Source: Escherichia phage K1E. From it: DNA of 45,251 bases. Every line of letters starts with the position of its first letter. The stretch's first letter is position 1. Below are positions 491-40,034 of this stretch, piece after piece. The stretch lies in the sequence record NC_007637.1; one strand, 5' to 3'. The notes below the pieces were generated by a model. That model was given only the letters and a program-made list of their open reading frames with translations. It did no database searches and was not told the origin of the DNA. The position numbers and the translations under genes are program-made.

Positions 491-714
491 CATAGCTAAA
501 GCTATAAGATGCAATTAGGTCGCGGTCGGTAGACCGCTGAGAGTAGGTAATAGTGATAAGATGCAGTAGGAGGAACACCAGAAACCTAGCCATCCTAGCC
601 TATCCTAGCTCTGTATCTATTGCTTTCCTTAGTCTCACATGTTAGACAACCTAGGTTTATCTTAGTAGTTGTGACATGTATCACATAAATAATCTATCTT
701 AGTTAAATTTAGTG

Positions 715-2864: not shown

Positions 2865-3092
2865 ATGGATTTAGATAGCATCATTATGGCATTTGCTCTT
2901 ATTGGCTTAAGCTGGTGCTCCTATCACCTTTACCGTGAGTTCTTATTTGATAAAGCTAAACGCAAACTAAGAAAGGAAGGCGGTAACTACCTCTGTGTAA
3001 GAGGCGGTTTAGTCGAATATATTGCACCTAACGGCACGGAATGCGCCATTAACAAAGATGCATTTATAGAAACGTGGCATTACATCAAGTAA
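2865..3092 (+). CDS. Hypothetical small membrane protein (75 aa)
   Basis: ATG 2865 with TAGGAG upstream; hydrophobic N-terminal segment IIMAFALIGLSWCSY. Confidence 0.45.
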   Translation: MDLDSIIMAFALIGLSWCSYHLYREFLFDKAKRKLRKEGGNYLCVRGGLVEYIAPNGTECAINKDAFIETWHYIK

Positions 3093-3155
3093 CTAGCCTA
3101 TAGCCTGCCTGTGTGGGCTATGTGATATTTACTTACACTATATAAGGTGACTATT

Positions 3156-4040
3156 ATGACTACTGAAAACACCCTTCTGTCTGTTCGTGAAGCTGCAACC
3201 GCTGAAATCAAGCAGCACTTAGACAATATCGGCACTTCTTACATCAAAGTTGGCGCTTGTCTGAATGAATTACGCGGTGATTTCGAAGGTCAAAAAGACT
3301 TTTTAGCTTATGTAGAATCAGAGTTCGGCATCAAGAAGGCACAATGCTACAAGCTGATGAGTGTAGCCCGTGTCTTTGAAGGAGACGAACGCTTTAAAGG
3401 TGTGGCTATGCGTGTAATGCTGGCGCTTGTTCCTTTCGCTGATGAAAATATAATCATGGAGAAGGCCGCAGAACTCGCCGCAGATGGCAAGCTGGACACT
3501 AACGCCGTAAACGCCCTGATTGAGACTAAGAAAGAGATAAAGGCCGAAACGGTACAATCTAAGGCTGAGGCAGTAAAACCGCAGGAGAACGCGACTGAGG
3601 CCGCAGAATCACAGGAAATGCAAGCGCCGCAGGTAGTGCCACCCGCGAGCGAGCAGGAGGCCGACGAATCAGCACCATGGGAAGAGGAAAGCAAGCCGGA
3701 AGCGCCAAAGGCAGCGCCGCTGGATAACACGGCTAATACCGAAAACGCCGCTATGGCTAGCCTCTTAGCACAAATTAAGGCACTGACTGAGCAATTACAG
3801 GCAGCTAATGACCGCATCGCCTCCTTAAGTAGCGCACGCGAAAGCAAGAAGGCAGCCGCACCTATGCTGCCGCAATTCAAATCTTCCTGCTTCTATGCTC
3901 GCTTAGGGTTAAGCGCTGAGGAGGCAACGAAGAAAACAGCAGTTAACAAGGCGCGCCGCGAACTGGTTAAGCTAGGCTACGGTGAAGGACATGAAGCATG
4001 GCCCTTAATCTCTGAGGCAGTAGAAGAGTTGACTAAGTAA
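3156..4040 (+). CDS. Hypothetical early protein (294 aa) with acidic Pro/Glu/Ala-rich linker
   Basis: Track ORF starts at GTG 3147; first ATG is 3156 with AAGGTGA upstream. GC-rich low-complexity middle (about 3540..3720); sits immediately upstream of the RNA polymerase gene. Confidence 0.55.
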   Translation: MTTENTLLSVREAATAEIKQHLDNIGTSYIKVGACLNELRGDFEGQKDFLAYVESEFGIKKAQCYKLMSVARVFEGDERFKGVAMRVMLALVPFADENIIMEKAAELAADGKLDTNAVNALIETKKEIKAETVQSKAEAVKPQENATEAAESQEMQAPQVVPPASEQEADESAPWEEESKPEAPKAAPLDNTANTENAAMASLLAQIKALTEQLQAANDRIASLSSARESKKAAAPMLPQFKSSCFYARLGLSAEEATKKTAVNKARRELVKLGYGEGHEAWPLISEAVEELTK

Positions 4041-4103
4041 CCTTATCGGTGGCATCTCCTTAGGTGTCACCTATTAAGGTTTCTTTCACTAGGAGTAAAC
4101 AAG

Positions 4104-6731
4104 ATGCAAGACCTACACGCTATTCAACTTCAACTTGAAGAAGAAATGTTTAACGGCGGCATCCGTCGCTTTGAAGCGGACCAACAACGCCAGATTGCAT
4201 CCGGTAATGAATCAGACACGGCATGGAATCGCCGCTTATTGTCCGAACTAATCGCACCTATGGCGGAAGGTATTCAGGCTTACAAGGAAGAATACGAAGG
4301 CAAGAGAGGTCGTGCACCACGTGCATTAGCTTTCATTAACTGCGTAGGAAACGAAGTGGCAGCATATATCACCATGAAAATCGTTATGGATATGCTGAAT
4401 ACAGACGTTACCTTACAAGCTATCGCTATGAATGTAGCAGACCGCATCGAGGACCAAGTACGTTTTAGCAAGCTGGAAGGTCACGCAGCTAAGTACTTTG
4501 AGAAAGTGAAGAAGTCGCTTAAGGCTAGCAAGACTAAATCTTATCGTCATGCGCACAACGTAGCGGTAGTAGCTGAGAAATCTGTTGCTGACCGTGACGC
4601 GGATTTCTCCCGTTGGGAGGCATGGCCTAAAGACACCTTGCTGCAAATCGGTATGACCTTGCTCGAAATATTGGAGAATAGTGTATTCTTCAATGGTCAA
4701 CCTGTCTTCCTTCGTACCTTGCGCACTAACGGCGGAAAGCATGGTGTTTACTATTTACAGACCAGTGAACATGTTGGCGAGTGGATAACTGCATTTAAGG
4801 AACATGTAGCGCAGCTCAGCCCTGCCTATGCACCTTGCGTTATACCTCCCCGCCCTTGGGTATCACCTTTTAACGGTGGGTTTCATACTGAGAAAGTAGC
4901 AAGCCGTATTCGTCTGGTAAAAGGCAATCGTGAGCACGTCCGCAAGCTGACCAAAAAGCAAATGCCAGCCGTTTATAAGGCTGTTAACGCTTTGCAGGCA
5001 ACTAAGTGGCAGGTTAATAAAGAGGTTTTACAGGTTGTGGAGGACGTTATACGTCTAGACCTCGGCTATGGTGTACCTTCCTTTAAACCACTCATCGACC
5101 GTGAGAACAAGCCAGCTAATCCGGTGCCGTTAGAGTTCCAGCACCTGCGAGGCCGTGAACTGAAAGAAATGTTAACACCGGAACAATGGCAAGCCTTCAT
5201 CAACTGGAAAGGTGAATGCACCAAGCTGTATACCGCTGAGACTAAGCGCGGCAGCAAATCGGCGGCGACCGTCCGCATGGTAGGGCAGGCCCGTAAATAC
5301 AGCCAATTTGACGCAATATACTTCGTGTATGCTCTGGACAGCCGCAGCCGCGTCTACGCGCAATCTAGCACGCTCTCTCCGCAATCAAACGACTTAGGCA
5401 AGGCATTGCTCCGTTTTACCGAAGGGCAGCGTCTTGATAGCGCTGAGGCGCTTAAGTGGTTTTTGGTGAACGGGGCTAATAACTGGGGTTGGGATAAGAA
5501 AACTTTTGACGTGCGCACCGCTAACGTGCTGGATAGTGAATTTCAAGACATGTGCCGCGACATTGCAGCGGATCCGCTGACCTTCACTCAATGGGTAAAT
5601 GCCGACTCCCCTTACGGCTTCCTTGCATGGTGCTTTGAATATGCGCGTTATCTGGATGCACTGGATGAAGGCACGCAAGACCAATTCATGACGCACCTCC
5701 CAGTCCATCAAGATGGTAGTTGTTCTGGTATCCAGCACTACAGTGCTATGCTACGCGATGCAGTAGGTGCGAAAGCAGTAAACCTTAAGCCCTCTGACTC
5801 TCCTCAAGATATTTATGGTGCCGTTGCGCAGGTAGTAATTCAGAAGAATTATGCATACATGAATGCAGAGGATGCGGAAACCTTCACTTCTGGCAGCGTG
5901 ACTTTAACAGGTGCGGAACTGCGTAGTATGGCTAGTGCGTGGGATATGATAGGAATCACTCGCGGCCTGACCAAAAAGCCCGTAATGACACTACCTTATG
6001 GCAGCACACGTCTAACCTGCCGTGAGTCAGTGATTGATTATATCGTTGATTTAGAAGAAAAAGAGGCCCAACGGGCTATTGCGGAAGGGCGTACCGCCAA
6101 TCCTGTACACCCTTTTGATAATGACCGTAAAGACAGCCTGACACCTAGCGCAGCTTATAACTATATGACAGCTTTAATCTGGCCTTCTATCTCGGAAGTG
6201 GTTAAAGCCCCTATAGTGGCAATGAAAATGATTCGTCAGCTTGCACGTTTCGCAGCTAAAAGAAACGAAGGCTTAGAATATCCCTTACCAACTGGCTTCA
6301 TCTTGCAACAAAAGATAATGGCTACCGATATGCTCCGCGTATCCACTTGCTTGATGGGTGAAATCAAGATGAGTCTCCAGATTGAAACAGATGTAGTTGA
6401 TGAAACGGCAATGATGGGTGCGGCTGCTCCTAACTTCGTCCATGGTCACGATGCTAGCCACCTGATTCTGACTGTATGTGACCTAGTGGATAAAGGTATT
6501 ACATCCGTTGCAGTCATCCATGATTCTTTCGGTACTCATGCAGGACGTACCGCAGACCTGCGGGATAGCTTAAGGGAAGAAATGGTTAAGATGTATCAAA
6601 ACCATAATGCCCTGCAAAACCTGCTAGATGTGCACGAAGAGCGTTGGTTAGTAGACACCGGAATCCAAGTACCAGAGCAAGGGGAGTTTGACCTTAACGA
6701 AATCTTAGTTTCAGACTATTGTTTCGCATAA
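4104..6731 (+). CDS. Single-subunit DNA-dependent RNA polymerase (T7/SP6 type, 875 aa)
   Basis: AGGAG RBS; motifs [19 protein letters not shown] and C-terminal ...DYCFA parallel T7 RNAP ([19 protein letters not shown], ...FAFA). Confidence 0.95.
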
Positions 6732-6804: not shown

Positions 6805-6820
6805 GTCTCACATGTGAGAC
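6805..6820. repeat. Palindromic hairpin GTCTCACATGTGAGAC, copy A
   Basis: Perfect 16-bp palindrome followed by TTTATTT, immediately upstream of the promoter at 6824. Confidence 0.7.
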
Positions 6821-6986: not shown

Positions 6987-7002
6987 GTCTCACATGTGAG
7001 AC
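6987..7002. repeat. Palindromic hairpin GTCTCACATGTGAGAC, copy B
   Basis: Perfect 16-bp palindrome, immediately upstream of the promoter at 7008. Confidence 0.7.
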
Positions 7003-7187: not shown

Positions 7188-7406
7188 ATGGCTAAATACA
7201 GAATCAAGACCTGTTTAAATAGTCACGGGCAAGAGTGTTACATAGTGCAACGTAAAGTATTAGGCTTAATATGGGTCACATGTATGATGCCTATTGGATA
7301 TACTGATACAGAGGCTATCTTCTGCACCGAAAGGGATGCAAAGCAGTTTATCTCTAAGCGTAGAAAAGCTGACTCTTATCAACCCAGAACTATTAAGGTG
7401 AACTAA
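7188..7406 (+). CDS. Hypothetical protein (72 aa)
   Basis: Track ORF; its stop overlaps the primase ATG (TAATG). Confidence 0.45.
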   Translation: MAKYRIKTCLNSHGQECYIVQRKVLGLIWVTCMMPIGYTDTEAIFCTERDAKQFISKRRKADSYQPRTIKVN

Positions 7407-9394
7407 TGGCTATTATTAATAACATCCCGTGTCCTGCTTGTCAGAAGAATGGACACGATAAATCCGGCAACCACCTCATGATATTTGATGATGGTGCTGG
7501 CTATTGCAACCGTGGTCACTTCCATGATAATGGCAAGCCCTACTATCACAAGCCAGAGGGTGGCATCGAGATAACCGAATTGCCTATTACTGGCAATATC
7601 AAATATACACCTTCTCAATTCAAAGAGATGGAGAAGGAAGGGAAGATAAGCGACCCTAAGTTGCGCGCCATCGCACTTGGTGGTATGCGTATGAAAGACC
7701 GTTGGGAGGTCATGAATGAGCAAGAAAGGGCAGACCAAGAAGCAGAGTGGAAACTTGATGTTGAATGGTTCCTCACGCTTAAGCGTAAGAACCTTGTGTC
7801 CCGTCACATTCGAGGTGACATCGCAGCAATGTACGATGTGCGCGTTGGACACGATGAAGAGGGAAGAGTCAACCGTCACTATTATCCACGATATGAAAAG
7901 GGTGTGCTTGTTGGAGCAAAATGCCGGACGTTGCCGAAGGATTTTAAGTTCGGACACCTAGGTAAACTCTTTGGTATGCAAGACCTTTTCGGTATGAATA
8001 CTTTGTCTCACGTGTTAGACAAGGGAAGACGAAAGGATTGCTTGCTTATTGTGGGCGGCGAACTGGATGCACTAGCAGCACAGCAAATGCTCCTTGATTC
8101 TGCCAAGGGTACTAAGTGGGAAGGCCAGCCTTACCATGTATGGTCTGCCAATAAAGGTGAGTCTTGCCTTGAAGAGATAGTGCAAAACCGTGAGCACATA
8201 GCCCAATTCAAGAAGATTATATGGGGCTTTGATGGCGACGAGGTGGGGCAGAAGCAGAACCAACAAGCTGCTCGCCTGTTTCCTGGCAAATCCTACATCC
8301 TCGAATATCCCTCTGGTTGCAAAGATGCTAACAAGGCATTGATGGCTGGCAAGGCTAAAGAGTTTGTTGATGCTTGGTTTAATGCCAAGTCATCTGATGA
8401 AGTCTTTGGTAGCCAGATTAAATCTATCGCATCTCAAAGGGATAAGCTCAAGGCTGCACGTCCAGAGCAAGGACTATCATGGCCTTGGCCTAAGCTGAAC
8501 AAGGTAACGCTAGGTATTCGTAAGAACCAGCTTATCATTGTAGGTGCAGGCTCTGGTGTAGGTAAGACTGAGTTCCTTCGTGAAGTAGTTAAGCACCTCA
8601 TTGAAGAACACGGTGAATCTGTAGGCATCATTTCTACAGAAGACCCGATGGTCAAGGTGTCCCGTGCTTTTATCGGCAAGTGGATTGATAAGCGTATTGA
8701 GTTACCGCCAACCAACGACCCGAAAGAAGACGGATACCGTGAGGTGTTCGACTACACCGAGGAAGAAGCTAACGCTGCCATTGATTATGTGGCTGATACA
8801 GGAAAGTTATTTGTGGCTGACCTAGAAGGCGACTATTCTATGGAGAAGGTAGAGCAAACTTGCCTAGAGTTTGAGGCTATGGGCATTTCTAATATCATCA
8901 TTGATAACTTAACGGGGATTAAATTAGATGAGCGTGCTTTTGGTGGGAAGGTTGGTGCACTTGATGAATGCGTCAAACGAATTGGTACTATCAAAGACCG
9001 ACATGCGGTTACGATTTTCCTTGTCTCTCACCTTACACGTCCTCCGGCAAACCGTACCCAACACGAAGAAGGTGGCGAAGTTATCCTTTCTGACTTCCGA
9101 GGCTCAGGCGCTATCGGATTCTGGGCATCTTACGCCTTGGGGATTGAGCGTAATACAAGAGCTGAAACGCTTGACGAAAGGACTACCACGTACATCTCAT
9201 GTGTCAAAGACCGCGACCAAGGTATCTGGACTGGAACCAAGGTCATGCTTAAGGGTGACATTCAAACCGGACGTTTAATGGAACCACAAGCCCGTACTAA
9301 GTCATTTGATACAGGTGAAGCAAGGCAACAAGAAGTGCCGGATTTACCGGACACTATAGAAGAGACAACCTTTGACGATGAACAGGAGTTTTAA
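7406..9394 (+). CDS. DNA primase/helicase (T7 gp4-like, 662 aa)
   Basis: N-terminal Cys4 zinc ribbon (CPACQKNGHD...CNRGH), Walker A GAGSGVGKTEF, acidic C-terminus ...FDDEQEF ending in Phe as in T7 gp4. Confidence 0.9.
   Translation: MAIINNIPCPACQKNGHDKSGNHLMIFDDGAGYCNRGHFHDNGKPYYHKPEGGIEITELPITGNIKYTPSQFKEMEKEGKISDPKLRAIALGGMRMKDRWEVMNEQERADQEAEWKLDVEWFLTLKRKNLVSRHIRGDIAAMYDVRVGHDEEGRVNRHYYPRYEKGVLVGAKCRTLPKDFKFGHLGKLFGMQDLFGMNTLSHVLDKGRRKDCLLIVGGELDALAAQQMLLDSAKGTKWEGQPYHVWSANKGESCLEEIVQNREHIAQFKKIIWGFDGDEVGQKQNQQAARLFPGKSYILEYPSGCKDANKALMAGKAKEFVDAWFNAKSSDEVFGSQIKSIASQRDKLKAARPEQGLSWPWPKLNKVTLGIRKNQLIIVGAGSGVGKTEFLREVVKHLIEEHGESVGIISTEDPMVKVSRAFIGKWIDKRIELPPTNDPKEDGYREVFDYTEEEANAAIDYVADTGKLFVADLEGDYSMEKVEQTCLEFEAMGISNIIIDNLTGIKLDERAFGGKVGALDECVKRIGTIKDRHAVTIFLVSHLTRPPANRTQHEEGGEVILSDFRGSGAIGFWASYALGIERNTRAETLDERTTTYISCVKDRDQGIWTGTKVMLKGDIQTGRLMEPQARTKSFDTGEARQQEVPDLPDTIEETTFDDEQEF
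9342..9364 (+). promoter_or_regulatory. SP6-type phage promoter inside the 3' end of the primase/helicase gene (+1 G at 9359)
   Basis: ATTTACCGGACACTATAGAAGAG; perfect core. Confidence 0.7.
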
Positions 9395-9566: not shown

Positions 9567-9594
9567 GGGCTTGTCTCACATGTGAGACAGGCTC
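9567..9594 (+). terminator. Palindromic hairpin (core GTCTCACATGTGAGAC, 9573..9588) with U-rich tail; terminator-like
   Basis: gggcttgtctcacatgtgagacaggctc followed by ttatta. Confidence 0.5.
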
Positions 9595-10746: not shown

Positions 10747-10768
10747 GTTGTCTCACACGTGAGACAGC
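10747..10768 (+). terminator. Palindromic hairpin variant GTCTCACACGTGAGAC (10750..10765); terminator-like
   Basis: ggttgtctcacacgtgagacagcc followed by tttcatc; same arms as the other copies with a different central dinucleotide. Confidence 0.45.
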
Positions 10769-15900: not shown

Positions 15901-15916
15901 GTCTCACGTGTGAGAC
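15901..15916. repeat. Palindromic hairpin variant GTCTCACGTGTGAGAC
   Basis: Reverse complement of the 10750 variant; lies immediately upstream of the promoter at 15932. Confidence 0.6.
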
Positions 15917-32582: not shown

Positions 32583-32604
32583 CTTGTCTCACATGTGAGA
32601 CAGG
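32583..32604 (+). terminator. Palindromic hairpin (core GTCTCACATGTGAGAC, 32586..32601); terminator-like
   Basis: cttgtctcacatgtgagacagg followed by tcttta. Confidence 0.5.
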
Positions 32605-37107: not shown

Positions 37108-37390
37108 ACATGCAGCTACAGAAGATGAGGTTGGCATCCTGCATGGTGCTATTACCAAAATCTTTAATAAGAAAGCACAGGCAATACTGGACACTATAGA
37201 AGAAGACCCAGATGCAGCACTGCATTTAGTCTCTGGTAAAGACATTGGAGCTATGTGTAAGTGGGTTCTTGATAATGGTATTACCGCTACACCTGCTGCA
37301 CAGCAGGAGGAGTCCAAGCTATCTAAGCGCCTCAAGGCTATCCGAGAGGCATCAAGTGGCAAGATTATTCAATTCACTAAGGAGGATTGA
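37091..37390 (+). CDS. Putative terminase small subunit (99 aa from GTG start)
   Basis: Track ORF starts at TTG 37046 inside the holin gene; proposed start is GTG 37091 with GGAGG 7 nt upstream; position matches T7 gene 18. Confidence 0.45.
   Translation: MSVHNKHAATEDEVGILHGAITKIFNKKAQAILDTIEEDPDAALHLVSGKDIGAMCKWVLDNGITATPAAQQEESKLSKRLKAIREASSGKIIQFTKED
37182..37204 (+). promoter_or_regulatory. Weak SP6-type promoter-like sequence inside coding sequence (+1 G at 37199)
   Basis: CAATACTGGACACTATAGAAGAA; perfect core with mismatches at -17 to -15. Confidence 0.4.
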
Positions 37391-38556
37391 TGGCTAAGGC
37401 AAGAGAATCACAAGCGGAGGCTCTTGCCAGATGGGAGATGCTACAGGAGTTACAGCAGACCTTTCCTTACACAGCGGAAGGTTTGCTTCTCTTTGCAGAC
37501 ACAGTTATTCATAACTTAATTGCAGGCAACCCTCATCTGATTCGTATGCAGGCTGATATCTTGAAGTTCCTATTCTACGGACACAAGTATCGCCTCATCG
37601 AAGCGCCTCGTGGTATCGCTAAGACAACACTATCAGCAATCTATACAGTATTCCGTATCATTCATGAACCGCATAAGCGTATCATGGTTGTATCCCAAAA
37701 CGCCAAGCGAGCAGAGGAAATCGCAGGTTGGGTAGTTAAAATCTTCCGTGGCCTAGACTTTCTTGAGTTTATGCTACCGGACATCTACGCAGGGGACCGT
37801 GCCTCAGTTAAGGCATTTGAGATTCATTACACCCTACGTGGCAGTGACAAGTCGCCTTCTGTGTCTTGTTACTCAATCGAAGCAGGTATGCAGGGTGCGC
37901 GTGCAGATATCATCCTAGCAGATGACGTTGAGTCAATGCAGAATGCTCGTACAGCGGCAGGACGTGCCTTGCTTGAGGAACTGACCAAGGAGTTTGAATC
38001 TATTAACCAGTTTGGTGATATTATCTACCTTGGTACTCCTCAGAACGTAAACTCTATCTACAATAACCTACCTGCTCGTGGTTACTCTGTTCGTATCTGG
38101 ACTGCACGTTATCCCTCAGTGGAGCAGGAGCAATGCTATGGTGACTTCCTTGCACCTATGATTGTGCAGGATATGAAGGACAACCCAGCACTTCGCTCAG
38201 GGTATGGCTTGGATGGCAATAGTGGTGCCCCTTGTGCACCTGAAATGTATGATGATGATGTGCTGATTGAGAAGGAAATCTCGCAGGGTGCGGCTAAGTT
38301 CCAGCTTCAGTTCATGCTTAACACTCGCATGATGGATGCTGACCGCTATCCGCTACGCCTGAACAACCTCATCTTCACTTCATTCGGTACAGAGGAAGTC
38401 CCTGTGATGCCTACGTGGAGCAATGATTCCATCAATATTATTGGCGATGCACCGAAGTATGGCAATAAGCCTACAGACTTCATGTATCGACCTGTGGCTC
38501 GCCCGTATGAATGGGGCGCTGTCACTCGTAAGATTATGTATATTGACCCTGCTGGT
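37390..38556 (+). CDS. Terminase large subunit, exon 1 (389 codons)
   Basis: ATG 37390 with AAGGAGG upstream; Walker A-like PRGIAKTT and Walker B ADIILADDVE; similarity to T7 gp19 stops at ...IDPAG, where an insertion begins. Confidence 0.85.
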
Positions 38557-39311
38557 AAACACCTCTGCCAGCGTAAAACCCTCTTAATTCGGTGGAACTC
38601 TCACTGAGACAATACCGAGCGAAGCCTGTTGCAATAACAGGAACGTGTAGAGACTAACTGTAAGGCCAAGCGGTCTGAAACAGAGGGAGGCGCAAGCCTA
38701 AGATATAGTCCGACCTACTAGGTGACTAGTAGAAGTTAAAGTAGCGAATTAACGTAACAATTGAAGGGAGTTAAATATGACAGAGCATAAAGTTTATCAT
38801 ATTCGTGTTGTTGGTGAAACTGATGTAATGCAAGGTTATATTGGTGTAACCTCCGATATTAAGAAGCGTATGAGAGAGCACAAGTGTGCAGGCCGTCTTT
38901 GTGATGGCCGCGAGTACGTTATCTTATTCACTGGTAGCAAAGAAGAGTGTTATGCACTAGAAGAGAAGCTACGCCCACATGACAACATGGGTTGGAATAA
39001 GGGTAAAGGTGGTTATCGCAAAGCAGGTAACATCGAGAAAGGTGAACGCATAAGTATTGCCACTGAAATCAAGAAAGGACAGCACTTGTCTGTTGCCACT
39101 GAGTTCAAGAAAGGCATGACACCTTACAACAAAGGTACTGGCAAAGATTACATATTCACTTCTCCAGATGGTGAAGAGTTTCTTGTAACTTGCATTACTG
39201 ACTTCTGTAAAGAGCACAACCTAACACCTCAGAATATGCGTAAGGTGGCACGTGGTTTACGTAAACACCACAAGGGTTGGCTCGCACGTCACGTTCAAAC
39301 CGGGAGGTAAG
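38557..39311 (+). mobile_element. Group I intron (candidate, self-splicing) carrying a homing endonuclease gene
   Basis: Conserved elements in canonical order: P AATTCGGTGGAA (38586..38597), Q AATACCGAGC (38611..38620), R GTAGAGACTAACTG (38647..38660), S AAGATATAGTCC (38700..38711). P1 pairing of exon GCTGGT (38551..38556) with GCCAGC (38567..38572). The 3' boundary is uncertain: G39311 or G39302. Confidence 0.75.
38777..39310 (+). CDS. GIY-YIG homing endonuclease (I-TevI-like, 177 aa) encoded within the intron
   Basis: AAGGGAG RBS; N-terminal KVYHIRVV...GYIGVTSDIKKRMREH (GIY-YIG with conserved Arg/Glu); central repeated GERISIATEIKKG / HLSVATEFKKG units; basic C-terminal DNA-binding-like region. 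Confidence 0.8.
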   Translation: MTEHKVYHIRVVGETDVMQGYIGVTSDIKKRMREHKCAGRLCDGREYVILFTGSKEECYALEEKLRPHDNMGWNKGKGGYRKAGNIEKGERISIATEIKKGQHLSVATEFKKGMTPYNKGTGKDYIFTSPDGEEFLVTCITDFCKEHNLTPQNMRKVARGLRKHHKGWLARHVQTGR

Positions 39312-40034
39312 AATGGGGATGAAACGGGTGTGGCTATCGTCTTCCTGCACGGCACATTCATTTATGTGTATCAGTGCTTTGGTGTGCCGGGAGGATACCG
39401 CGAATCGTCCCTGAATCGCATTGTGCAGGCCGCAAAGCAGGCAGGTGTTAAAGAGGTATTCATTGAAAAGAACTTTGGTCATGGCGCGTTTGAGGCCGTT
39501 ATAAAGCCATACTTTGAACGAGAGTGGCCTGTGACTCTGGAGGAAGATTACGCCACCGGACAGAAAGAGTTGCGTATCATTGAAACACTAGAGCCACTAA
39601 TGGCGGCCCACAGGCTCATCTTCAACGCAGAGATGGTCAAGTCTGATTTTGAGTCGGTACAGCACTATCCGCTTGAGCTACGCATGTCATACAGCCTTTT
39701 CAATCAAATGTCGAACATCACGATTGAGAAGAACAGCCTACGACACGATGACCGCTTAGACGCTCTGTATGGCGCTATACGGCAATTAACTTCTCAGATA
39801 GACTATGACGAGGTTACACGGATTAATCGCCTCAGAGCGCAGGAGATGCGCGATTACATCCATGCTATGAACACACCTCACCTCCGTAGGGCAATGCTCT
39901 ATGGAGATTATGGCACTGAGCGAAGAGTAACCAACACTTCCGTGGCTATGCAGCAAAGAGTATACGGTCAGAATTACAGGAGTAAATCGGCAAGCAGAAA
40001 TACACTTTCTGCAAGGATTTCAAGGACTTATTAA
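39312..40034 (+). CDS. Terminase large subunit, exon 2 (240 codons; may instead begin at 39303)
   Basis: NGDETGVAIVFLHG...EKNFGHGAFEAV...QKELRIIETLEPLMAAHRLIFN...HDDRLDAL parallels the C-terminal nuclease domain of T7 gp19. Confidence 0.85.
   Translation, partial: NGDETGVAIVFLHGTFIYVYQCFGVPGGYRESSLNRIVQAAKQAGVKEVFIEKNFGHGAFEAVIKPYFEREWPVTLEEDYATGQKELRIIETLEPLMAAHRLIFNAEMVKSDFESVQHYPLELRMSYSLFNQMSNITIEKNSLRHDDRLDALYGAIRQLTSQIDYDEVTRINRLRAQEMRDYIHAMNTPHLRRAMLYGDYGTERRVTNTSVAMQQRVYGQNYRSKSASRNTLSARISRTY

Follow-up and report, generated by a model that had tools for sequence, protein, structure and literature searches.

What does an SP6-type phage produce at the position where T7 carries gene 0.7? 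In the genome of Escherichia phage K1E (NC_007637.1), whose full length of 45,251 nucleotides (nt) constitutes the window analyzed here, the gene for the 875-amino-acid (aa) single-subunit phage RNA polymerase (4104..6731) is directly preceded by an early open reading frame (ORF) at 3156..4040 on the plus strand, which encodes a protein of 294 aa. This gene resembles that of T7 gp0.7 (a protein kinase that shuts off host transcription) in standing last among the early genes, ahead of the RNA polymerase gene, but its product has no kinase domain and no sequence similarity to gp0.7. The first-pass annotation of this locus had pointed to both the gene 0.7 position and the absence of kinase motifs, and we agree on both: Pfam and NCBIfam scans returned zero kinase families, and a kinase or T7 0.7-like function found no support in the Pfam scan. 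Profile comparisons and structure prediction point instead to a protein that joins an N-terminal DUF3102-type, KorB/ParB-like helix-turn-helix domain to a degenerate C-terminal J-domain, in which the HPD tripeptide is replaced by a different, invariant loop.

The ORF is a real, conserved gene, because it matches phrog_4571 (function unknown) from end to end (E 1.3e-130; residues 1-294 on profile positions 1-287 of 289), is widely distributed in tblastn searches, has numerous relatives in profile searches, and is predicted by AlphaFold2 to form confident domains. It is the ortholog, also by synteny, of K1-5 gene 6 (94.6% protein identity) and SP6 gp7 (65.8%). The genome is that of an SP6-type podophage of the genus Vectrevirus (K1E/K1-5 group), and over window positions 3000-4100 it shares 90-98% identity with many Escherichia phages of the genus. 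The ATG start codon at 3156 has a Shine-Dalgarno-like AAGGTG (3144..3149, plus strand; read directly from the sequence) 6 nt to its 5' side, and the stop codon occupies 4038-4040. The tblastn search recovered the gene from 212 phage records, with identity falling to ~30%, in phages of Escherichia, Salmonella, Klebsiella, Proteus, Erwinia, Pectobacterium, Vibrio, Pseudomonas, Aeromonas, Marinomonas, Ralstonia, and Edwardsiella. When 1.84 billion representative proteins were searched with a profile built from 13 orthologs, 1234 relatives emerged at E<=1e-3, of which 101 had E<=1e-30. Pfam, NCBIfam, and PDB-sequence scans of the 294-aa protein itself gave no significant match, and the 13-ortholog profile returned only coiled-coil and low-complexity noise from PDB sequences.

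Structure prediction with AlphaFold2 on a 100-sequence alignment (mean predicted local distance difference test [pLDDT] score, 82.8) divided the protein into five parts, all given here with plus-strand coordinates: (i) an N-terminal six-helix domain with a helix-turn-helix core (residues 10-129; 3183..3542; pLDDT >95); (ii) a disordered, acidic linker rich in Pro, Glu, Ala, and Gln (residues 130-192; 3543..3731; pLDDT <50; isoelectric point [pI] 4.05); (iii) a long heptad helix (residues 193-232; 3732..3851); (iv) a conserved P-x-L-P-Q-F motif (residues 236-241; 3861..3878), recognized in alignments; and (v) immediately behind this motif, a J-like domain (residues 242-294; 3879..4037). The C-terminal helical region as a whole (residues 239-293) was modeled with pLDDT >93 in the full protein and 93.1 when predicted alone. 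Within the motif, P236, L238, and F241 are nearly invariant in the 100 family sequences, and L238, Q240, and F241 are invariant in the 13 phage orthologs. The first-pass annotation had proposed two helical domains joined by a GC-rich Pro/Glu/Ala linker at about 3540..3720, which is essentially right; it overlooked the 40-residue heptad helix and the DUF3102-type, KorB/ParB-like character of the N-terminal domain.

On the evidence of profiles and predicted structure, the C-terminal domain is a diverged J-domain by homology. The relationship is carried by a graded series of family members. At one end, P0244 (43.7 bits) and P0242 (31.7 bits) pass the Pfam DnaJ gathering score of 27.8, and four intermediates (P0165, P0200, P0180, and P0193) match Pfam DnaJ at E 1e-5 to 7e-4. 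P0165 can be aligned with the K1E-type protein over the whole length, C-terminal domain included (E 2e-41; 37% identity). P0244, which has a canonical HPD J-domain, retains the family motif as MLPHF directly before that domain, which suggests a common architecture and not an independent fusion. A profile of 76 family C-terminal domains, two of them with HPD, retrieved ~50 J-domain chains, and little else, from the PDB (best E 5e-6). When a profile restricted to 40 sequences with the GYGxGH loop was compared by hhalign with five canonical J-domains (E. coli DnaJ and DjlA from the K-12 genome, plus three from PDB alignments), the match (87%; E 3.9e-6) extended over 57 columns covering helices I-III. 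The first-pass annotation had called this segment, which is present exactly as it was quoted there, loosely J-domain-like; the resemblance is true homology, stronger than had been stated. Profile and structure comparisons disclosed no clear homology to a characterized, unrelated family.

How far, then, does this domain depart from a working J-domain? Like the J-domains of DnaJ/Hsp40 proteins (PF00226), it is predicted to have helices I-III of the J fold, packed, with the helix II-III hairpin, and it shares with them YxxLG(L/V) where helix I begins, KA(F/Y)R in helix II, and an aromatic residue where helix III begins. The DnaJ residues Y25, K26, and F47 reportedly matter; the equivalents of K26 (Arg) and F47 (Trp/Phe/Tyr) are retained in the family, and the equivalent of Y25 is Phe or Tyr in most members and Arg in the K1E protein and its closest relatives. 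The differences are that the protein stops after helix III and so has no helix IV; that the domain stands at the C terminus, preceded by a helix-turn-helix domain and a coiled coil; and that the helix II-III loop is shorter and lacks the HPD tripeptide, as had been noted in the first-pass annotation. The sequence in its place is GYGEGH (G274-H279; 3975..3992, plus strand), which MAFFT and BLASTP alignments set at the position of the (K)YHPD loop; L-G-Y-G-E-G-H (residues 273-279) stands opposite L-Y-H-P-D-I in P0242 and H-Y-N-P-D-T-N in P0165. Judged by the HPD tripeptide that defines the class, the protein is J-like and does not count as a J-domain protein. Among the 150 best family representatives, HPD was found in 3 (P0242, P0244, and P0253), NPD/TPE in 5, GY[GNSD]xxH in 48, and other loops in 60. 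In the 40 sequences of the GYGxGH subfamily, G, Y, and H are invariant, and the loop is therefore constrained and not simply decayed. The J-like domain is also the most conserved part of the protein.

The N-terminal domain has no solved relative by sequence. Its identity is approached through sub-threshold DUF3102 (PF11300) matches in 3 of 13 orthologs (best E 0.015) and 8 of 10 family members (E 1.5e-4 to 0.04), and through seven distant relatives (P0254, P0255, P0256, P0260, P0261, P0263, and P0267), which the family profile found at E ~1e-12 to 1e-13 among the 1.84 billion proteins and which score 28-55 bits for DUF3102 (cut-off, 24.4) over the corresponding region. DUF3102, in whose sequence neighborhood the domain lies, is itself uncharacterized. 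When superimposed on the DNA-binding domains of KorB/ParB, the predicted fold fits at 2.9-3.3 A over ~92 residues, a modest similarity, and the best Foldseek matches, all non-significant, were Noc, KorB, and P1 ParB. In our reading, the domain is a helix-turn-helix domain of the DUF3102 type and has a KorB/ParB-like fold, and DNA binding by a domain so predicted is a reasonable hypothesis. The protein differs from ParB, KorB, and Noc in that its helix-turn-helix domain is acidic (pI 5.1) and in that the CTPase domain is absent: ~10 residues precede the helix-turn-helix domain, and the Pfam scan gave zero ParB-type matches. The helix at residues 193-232 carries hydrophobic residues at a/d positions with a spacing of 3-4 (M200, L203, I207, L210, L214, A217, I221, and L224) and is a probable dimerizing coiled coil; the Pfam scan of the protein gave weak matches to coiled-coil families such as SlyX.

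Our favored but tentative explanation, to which we give somewhat less than even odds, is that the protein acts early in infection as a dimeric adaptor and contacts the DnaK/DnaJ network of the host without canonical HPD-dependent activation. This interpretation is drawn from the descent from a J-domain, the retained helix II/III scaffold, the constrained loop, and the precedent of Rki, an early J-domain protein of phage RB43 that acts on DnaK (PMC3486835). The adaptor would be made from early transcripts of the host polymerase, its synthesis roughly coinciding with that of the phage RNA polymerase; it would dimerize through the heptad helix and would be anchored to a DNA or protein target by its N-terminal domain. 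The J-like domain would dock on the host Hsp70 system, either on DnaK through the retained helix II/III scaffold or on the J-domain of a host co-chaperone, as Pam16 does on Pam18. The mitochondrial Pam16/Tim16 protein is J-like in the same sense (i.e., a J fold without HPD, predicted in our case), but a specific sequence relationship to it is not detectable, and the host is bacterial and the domain architecture different. The J-domain of Rki is inactive when the His of its HPD is mutated (PMC3486835), and the K1E protein therefore cannot work as Rki does. Since HPD is missing, canonical stimulation of the ATPase is excluded, so that ATP hydrolysis would not be triggered in the HPD-dependent manner, and what remains is a role as a decoy, tether, or modulator of DnaK/DnaJ in host takeover rather than as a normal co-chaperone. 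A narrower form of the proposal, in which the pseudo-J-domain adaptor is a core early gene product of SP6-type phages whose dimer captures or blocks DnaK/DnaJ, or re-targets it through the KorB-like domain to a site on DNA or a protein, seems to us rather unlikely.

Several points weigh against the adaptor proposal. The K1E protein itself has no Pfam DnaJ or DUF3102 match at E<=1, and both assignments depend on profiles, transitive links, and predicted structure. The GYGxGH-only profile was non-significant against PDB sequences (DnaJ ranked second, at E 0.58), and the J-domain link therefore needs profile-profile sensitivity. The top Foldseek matches of the C-terminal domain were J-domains with template modeling (TM) scores of 0.55-0.65, but their E-values were ~1. 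The invariance of GYGxGH could equally fit a new partner unrelated to Hsp70. DnaK binding by the J-like domain is something we only infer; the argument for dimerization consists of the heptad spacing alone. Literature searches on SP6 gp7, on DUF3102, on J-domain proteins of phages, and on host factors of SP6 turned up no publication or experiment addressing this protein. No description of the architecture was found in the searchable literature, although a remark in the original SP6 or K1-5/K1E genome papers is possible.

If the N-terminal domain is given more weight than the C-terminal one, the protein becomes a KorB-like dimeric DNA-binding regulator of the early-to-middle transcription switch or of the nucleoid, with the J-like domain repurposed as an interaction or structural module that has no link to Hsp70. 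The modeled resemblance to the Noc, KorB, and P1 ParB DNA-binding domains, however weak, and the transitive link to DUF3102 are what such a regulator would lead one to expect, and so is the general loss of HPD, which is kept in only 3/150 family representatives. The acidity of the N-terminal domain speaks against it, and a passive module is an ill-suited role for the most conserved part of the protein. Moreover, no candidate operator was found, and the sole recurrent palindrome of the genome behaves as an RNA hairpin. Taken together, we consider this regulator unlikely.

This palindrome, GTCTCAC(A/G)(T/C)GTGAGAC (GTCTCACATGTGAGAC), is 16 nt long and occurs in eight copies in the window (632-647, 6805-6820, 6987-7002, 8005-8020, 9573-9588, 10750-10765, 15901-15916, and 32586-32601), compared with an expectation of 0.28. 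Three of them precede phage promoters by 2-14 nt, and three have extended stems containing G.U pairs, followed by a U-rich tail; the G.U pairs of the extended stems in the window form on the plus strand only (-19.7 kcal/mol; z -5.3). Related elements, with arms changed in a compensatory way, stand at equivalent positions in SP6 (L013: 493, 6264, 7071, 8547, 9383, 17752, and 30569), Proteus phage PM93 (L014: 6409, 10538, 11616, 15990, and 32128), and Erwinia phage S2 (L015: 6770, 9992, and 14275). The SP6 counterpart, GTCTAAC-NN-GTTGGAC, is no palindrome as DNA, and its plus-strand RNA pairs perfectly by U.G wobble. The wobble in SP6, the restriction of G.U pairs to the plus strand, and the compensatory arm changes led us to reject the palindrome as an operator of the N-terminal domain. 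No Rfam family matched the 16-nt element, which looks like a conserved plus-strand RNA hairpin without a link to the early protein.

The acidic linker raises the possibility of a different kind of early function. It contains 15 Asp plus Glu, 8 Pro, 13 Ala, and 6 Gln in 63 residues, and its guanine-plus-cytosine (GC) content is 0.603 compared with 0.451 for the window. GC is raised at all three codon positions (GC1 0.75; GC3 0.59); the high GC1 and GC2 are due to amino acid composition, and GC3 is also somewhat raised. Across relatives the linker has zero conserved columns and many indels, and its length varies even among close ones, some of which have longer linkers (tblastn matches of 921 nt versus 882 nt). 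With such a segment, or by sequestering a defense component, the protein might neutralize a host immune system. An anti-defense role of this kind would suit a gene of the earliest expression class, as judged by its position, and the early regions of relatives do hold an Ocr-like anti-restriction gene (SP6), S-adenosylmethionine (SAM) hydrolase/lyase genes, and an Acb2/Tad1-like gene. No other part of the protein is as poorly conserved as the linker, however, and conservation in SP6-type phages across many host genera fits a core function better than an accessory gene, so that we give this explanation little credence. A role in host takeover, which the first-pass annotation had suggested, is plausible in view of the early position and the anti-restriction/anti-defense neighbors. 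The interpretation given in that annotation is, as a whole, partly supported by our results.

The position of the gene invites one more explanation. In 12/12 diverse annotated phages examined, the gene lies immediately 5' of the RNA polymerase gene or one small ORF away, and in two metagenomic members with divergent C-terminal loops, the only metagenomic contigs long enough to show synteny, it adjoins the RNA polymerase gene or is two small ORFs off. Such constant adjacency would be explained if the protein were an accessory factor of the phage RNA polymerase (i.e., a folding or assembly helper or a regulator), and the derivation of one domain from J-domains hints at an origin connected with chaperones. 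The whole phage group shares one gene order, though, which leaves adjacency with little functional weight, and recombinant SP6 RNA polymerase needs no partner to be active; we regard an accessory factor as very improbable. The contigs of P0244, P0242, and P0165, which represent the HPD-bearing and intermediate forms, are ~2 kb long and too short for gene context. A scan of viral contigs with P0244 gave one weak locus only, and tblastn of P0242 in isolated phages matched the N-terminal domain only; no sequenced isolate with the HPD version was found.

Many relatives are longer than the K1E protein (~340-500 aa), including 64/100 sequences of the family alignment and the genes at L008 695-1729, L010 1321-2346, L011 1300-2334, and L012 1300-2316. 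Their additional N-terminal helical segment has a conserved ...TLKDAK...(A)RTKAAF... pattern and is absent from the K1E protein; one longer relative is annotated as "UPF0137 family protein". Several ortholog records (KY295893.1, KY295891.1/NC_047806.1, NC_047807.1, OQ291025.1, OQ729742.1, and PP179315.1) bear names that found no support here, namely "late transcription factor VLTF-4", "andolysin", "endolysin", "putative prolipoprotein diacylglyceryl transferase", and "periplasmatic protein"; the other deposited annotations read "hypothetical protein". An antisense ORF of 177 aa (3347-3880, minus strand), rich in Ala, Ser, and Cys, overlaps the linker region and most likely reflects the GC-rich, Ala/Glu-rich composition of the sense sequence rather than a gene.

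The surroundings of the gene follow the typical order of early genes, RNA polymerase, and then primase/helicase (7406..9394). On the plus strand, a weak stem-loop (3099..3122; -12 kcal/mol; z -1.5) just 5' of the early-protein gene is possibly a transcript-processing or terminator-like element. A second plus-strand stem-loop (4039..4081), identified by its folding energy, lies between the stop codon of the gene and the ribosome-binding site of the RNA polymerase gene and is followed by UUUCUUUC; it folds at -21.6 kcal/mol (z -3.9), with 0/200 shuffles equally stable, and a putative terminator is annotated at the equivalent position in Proteus phage PM93. It could serve in attenuation or processing of the early transcript before the polymerase gene. 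Two sigma-70-like promoters with identical hexamers (TTGACA, 17 nt, TACATT) at 715-743 and 1601-1629 are candidate host-polymerase early promoters by sequence, in a region whose promoter count is no higher than chance. A degenerate sequence resembling a phage promoter, TATTTAGCTGACACTATAAGAG, with four mismatches to the consensus, is found at 2778-2799, upstream of ORF 2865 and of the early-protein gene, and the early region of Erwinia phage S2 has a similar ...CTATAAGAG variant (L015 1628-1648). Between the small early genes, repeated elements of 31-40 nt (GCTCTTTAACAAT...) and paired inverted repeats (887-917, 1656-1702, 1948-2014, and 2211-2278) probably form long intergenic hairpins, perhaps processing sites as in T7 early RNA.

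Elsewhere in the window, Rfam identified a group I intron at 38525-38732 (63.6 bits; E 5.8e-14), flanked by ORFs at 37387-38607, 38777-39310, and 39252-40034, which appears to split the terminase large subunit gene. An ORF downstream of the intron matches the RNase H-like nuclease domain of T7 terminase (E 3e-33), and an ORF just past the intron core has weak GIY-YIG and NUMOD-like matches, which suggests a homing endonuclease.

To return to the question posed by this locus, phages of the SP6/K1-5/K1E type have no T7 0.7 kinase homolog at this position; what is new is a conserved phage early protein that appears to unite a DUF3102/KorB-like domain with a degenerate J-domain and a distinctive invariant loop. 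These phages are widely isolated therapeutic candidates, and their polymerase is a standard laboratory tool. The combined helix-turn-helix and J-like identity makes the protein a testable candidate for the handling of the host chaperone network, and the loop series of HPD, NPD/TPE, and GYGxGH offers a natural series for the study of HPD-less J-domains. If the pseudo-J-domain adaptor proposed here is real, it would represent a host-takeover strategy described for no phage, and the family would record the stepwise turn of a working J-domain, as in its HPD members, into a non-activating one.
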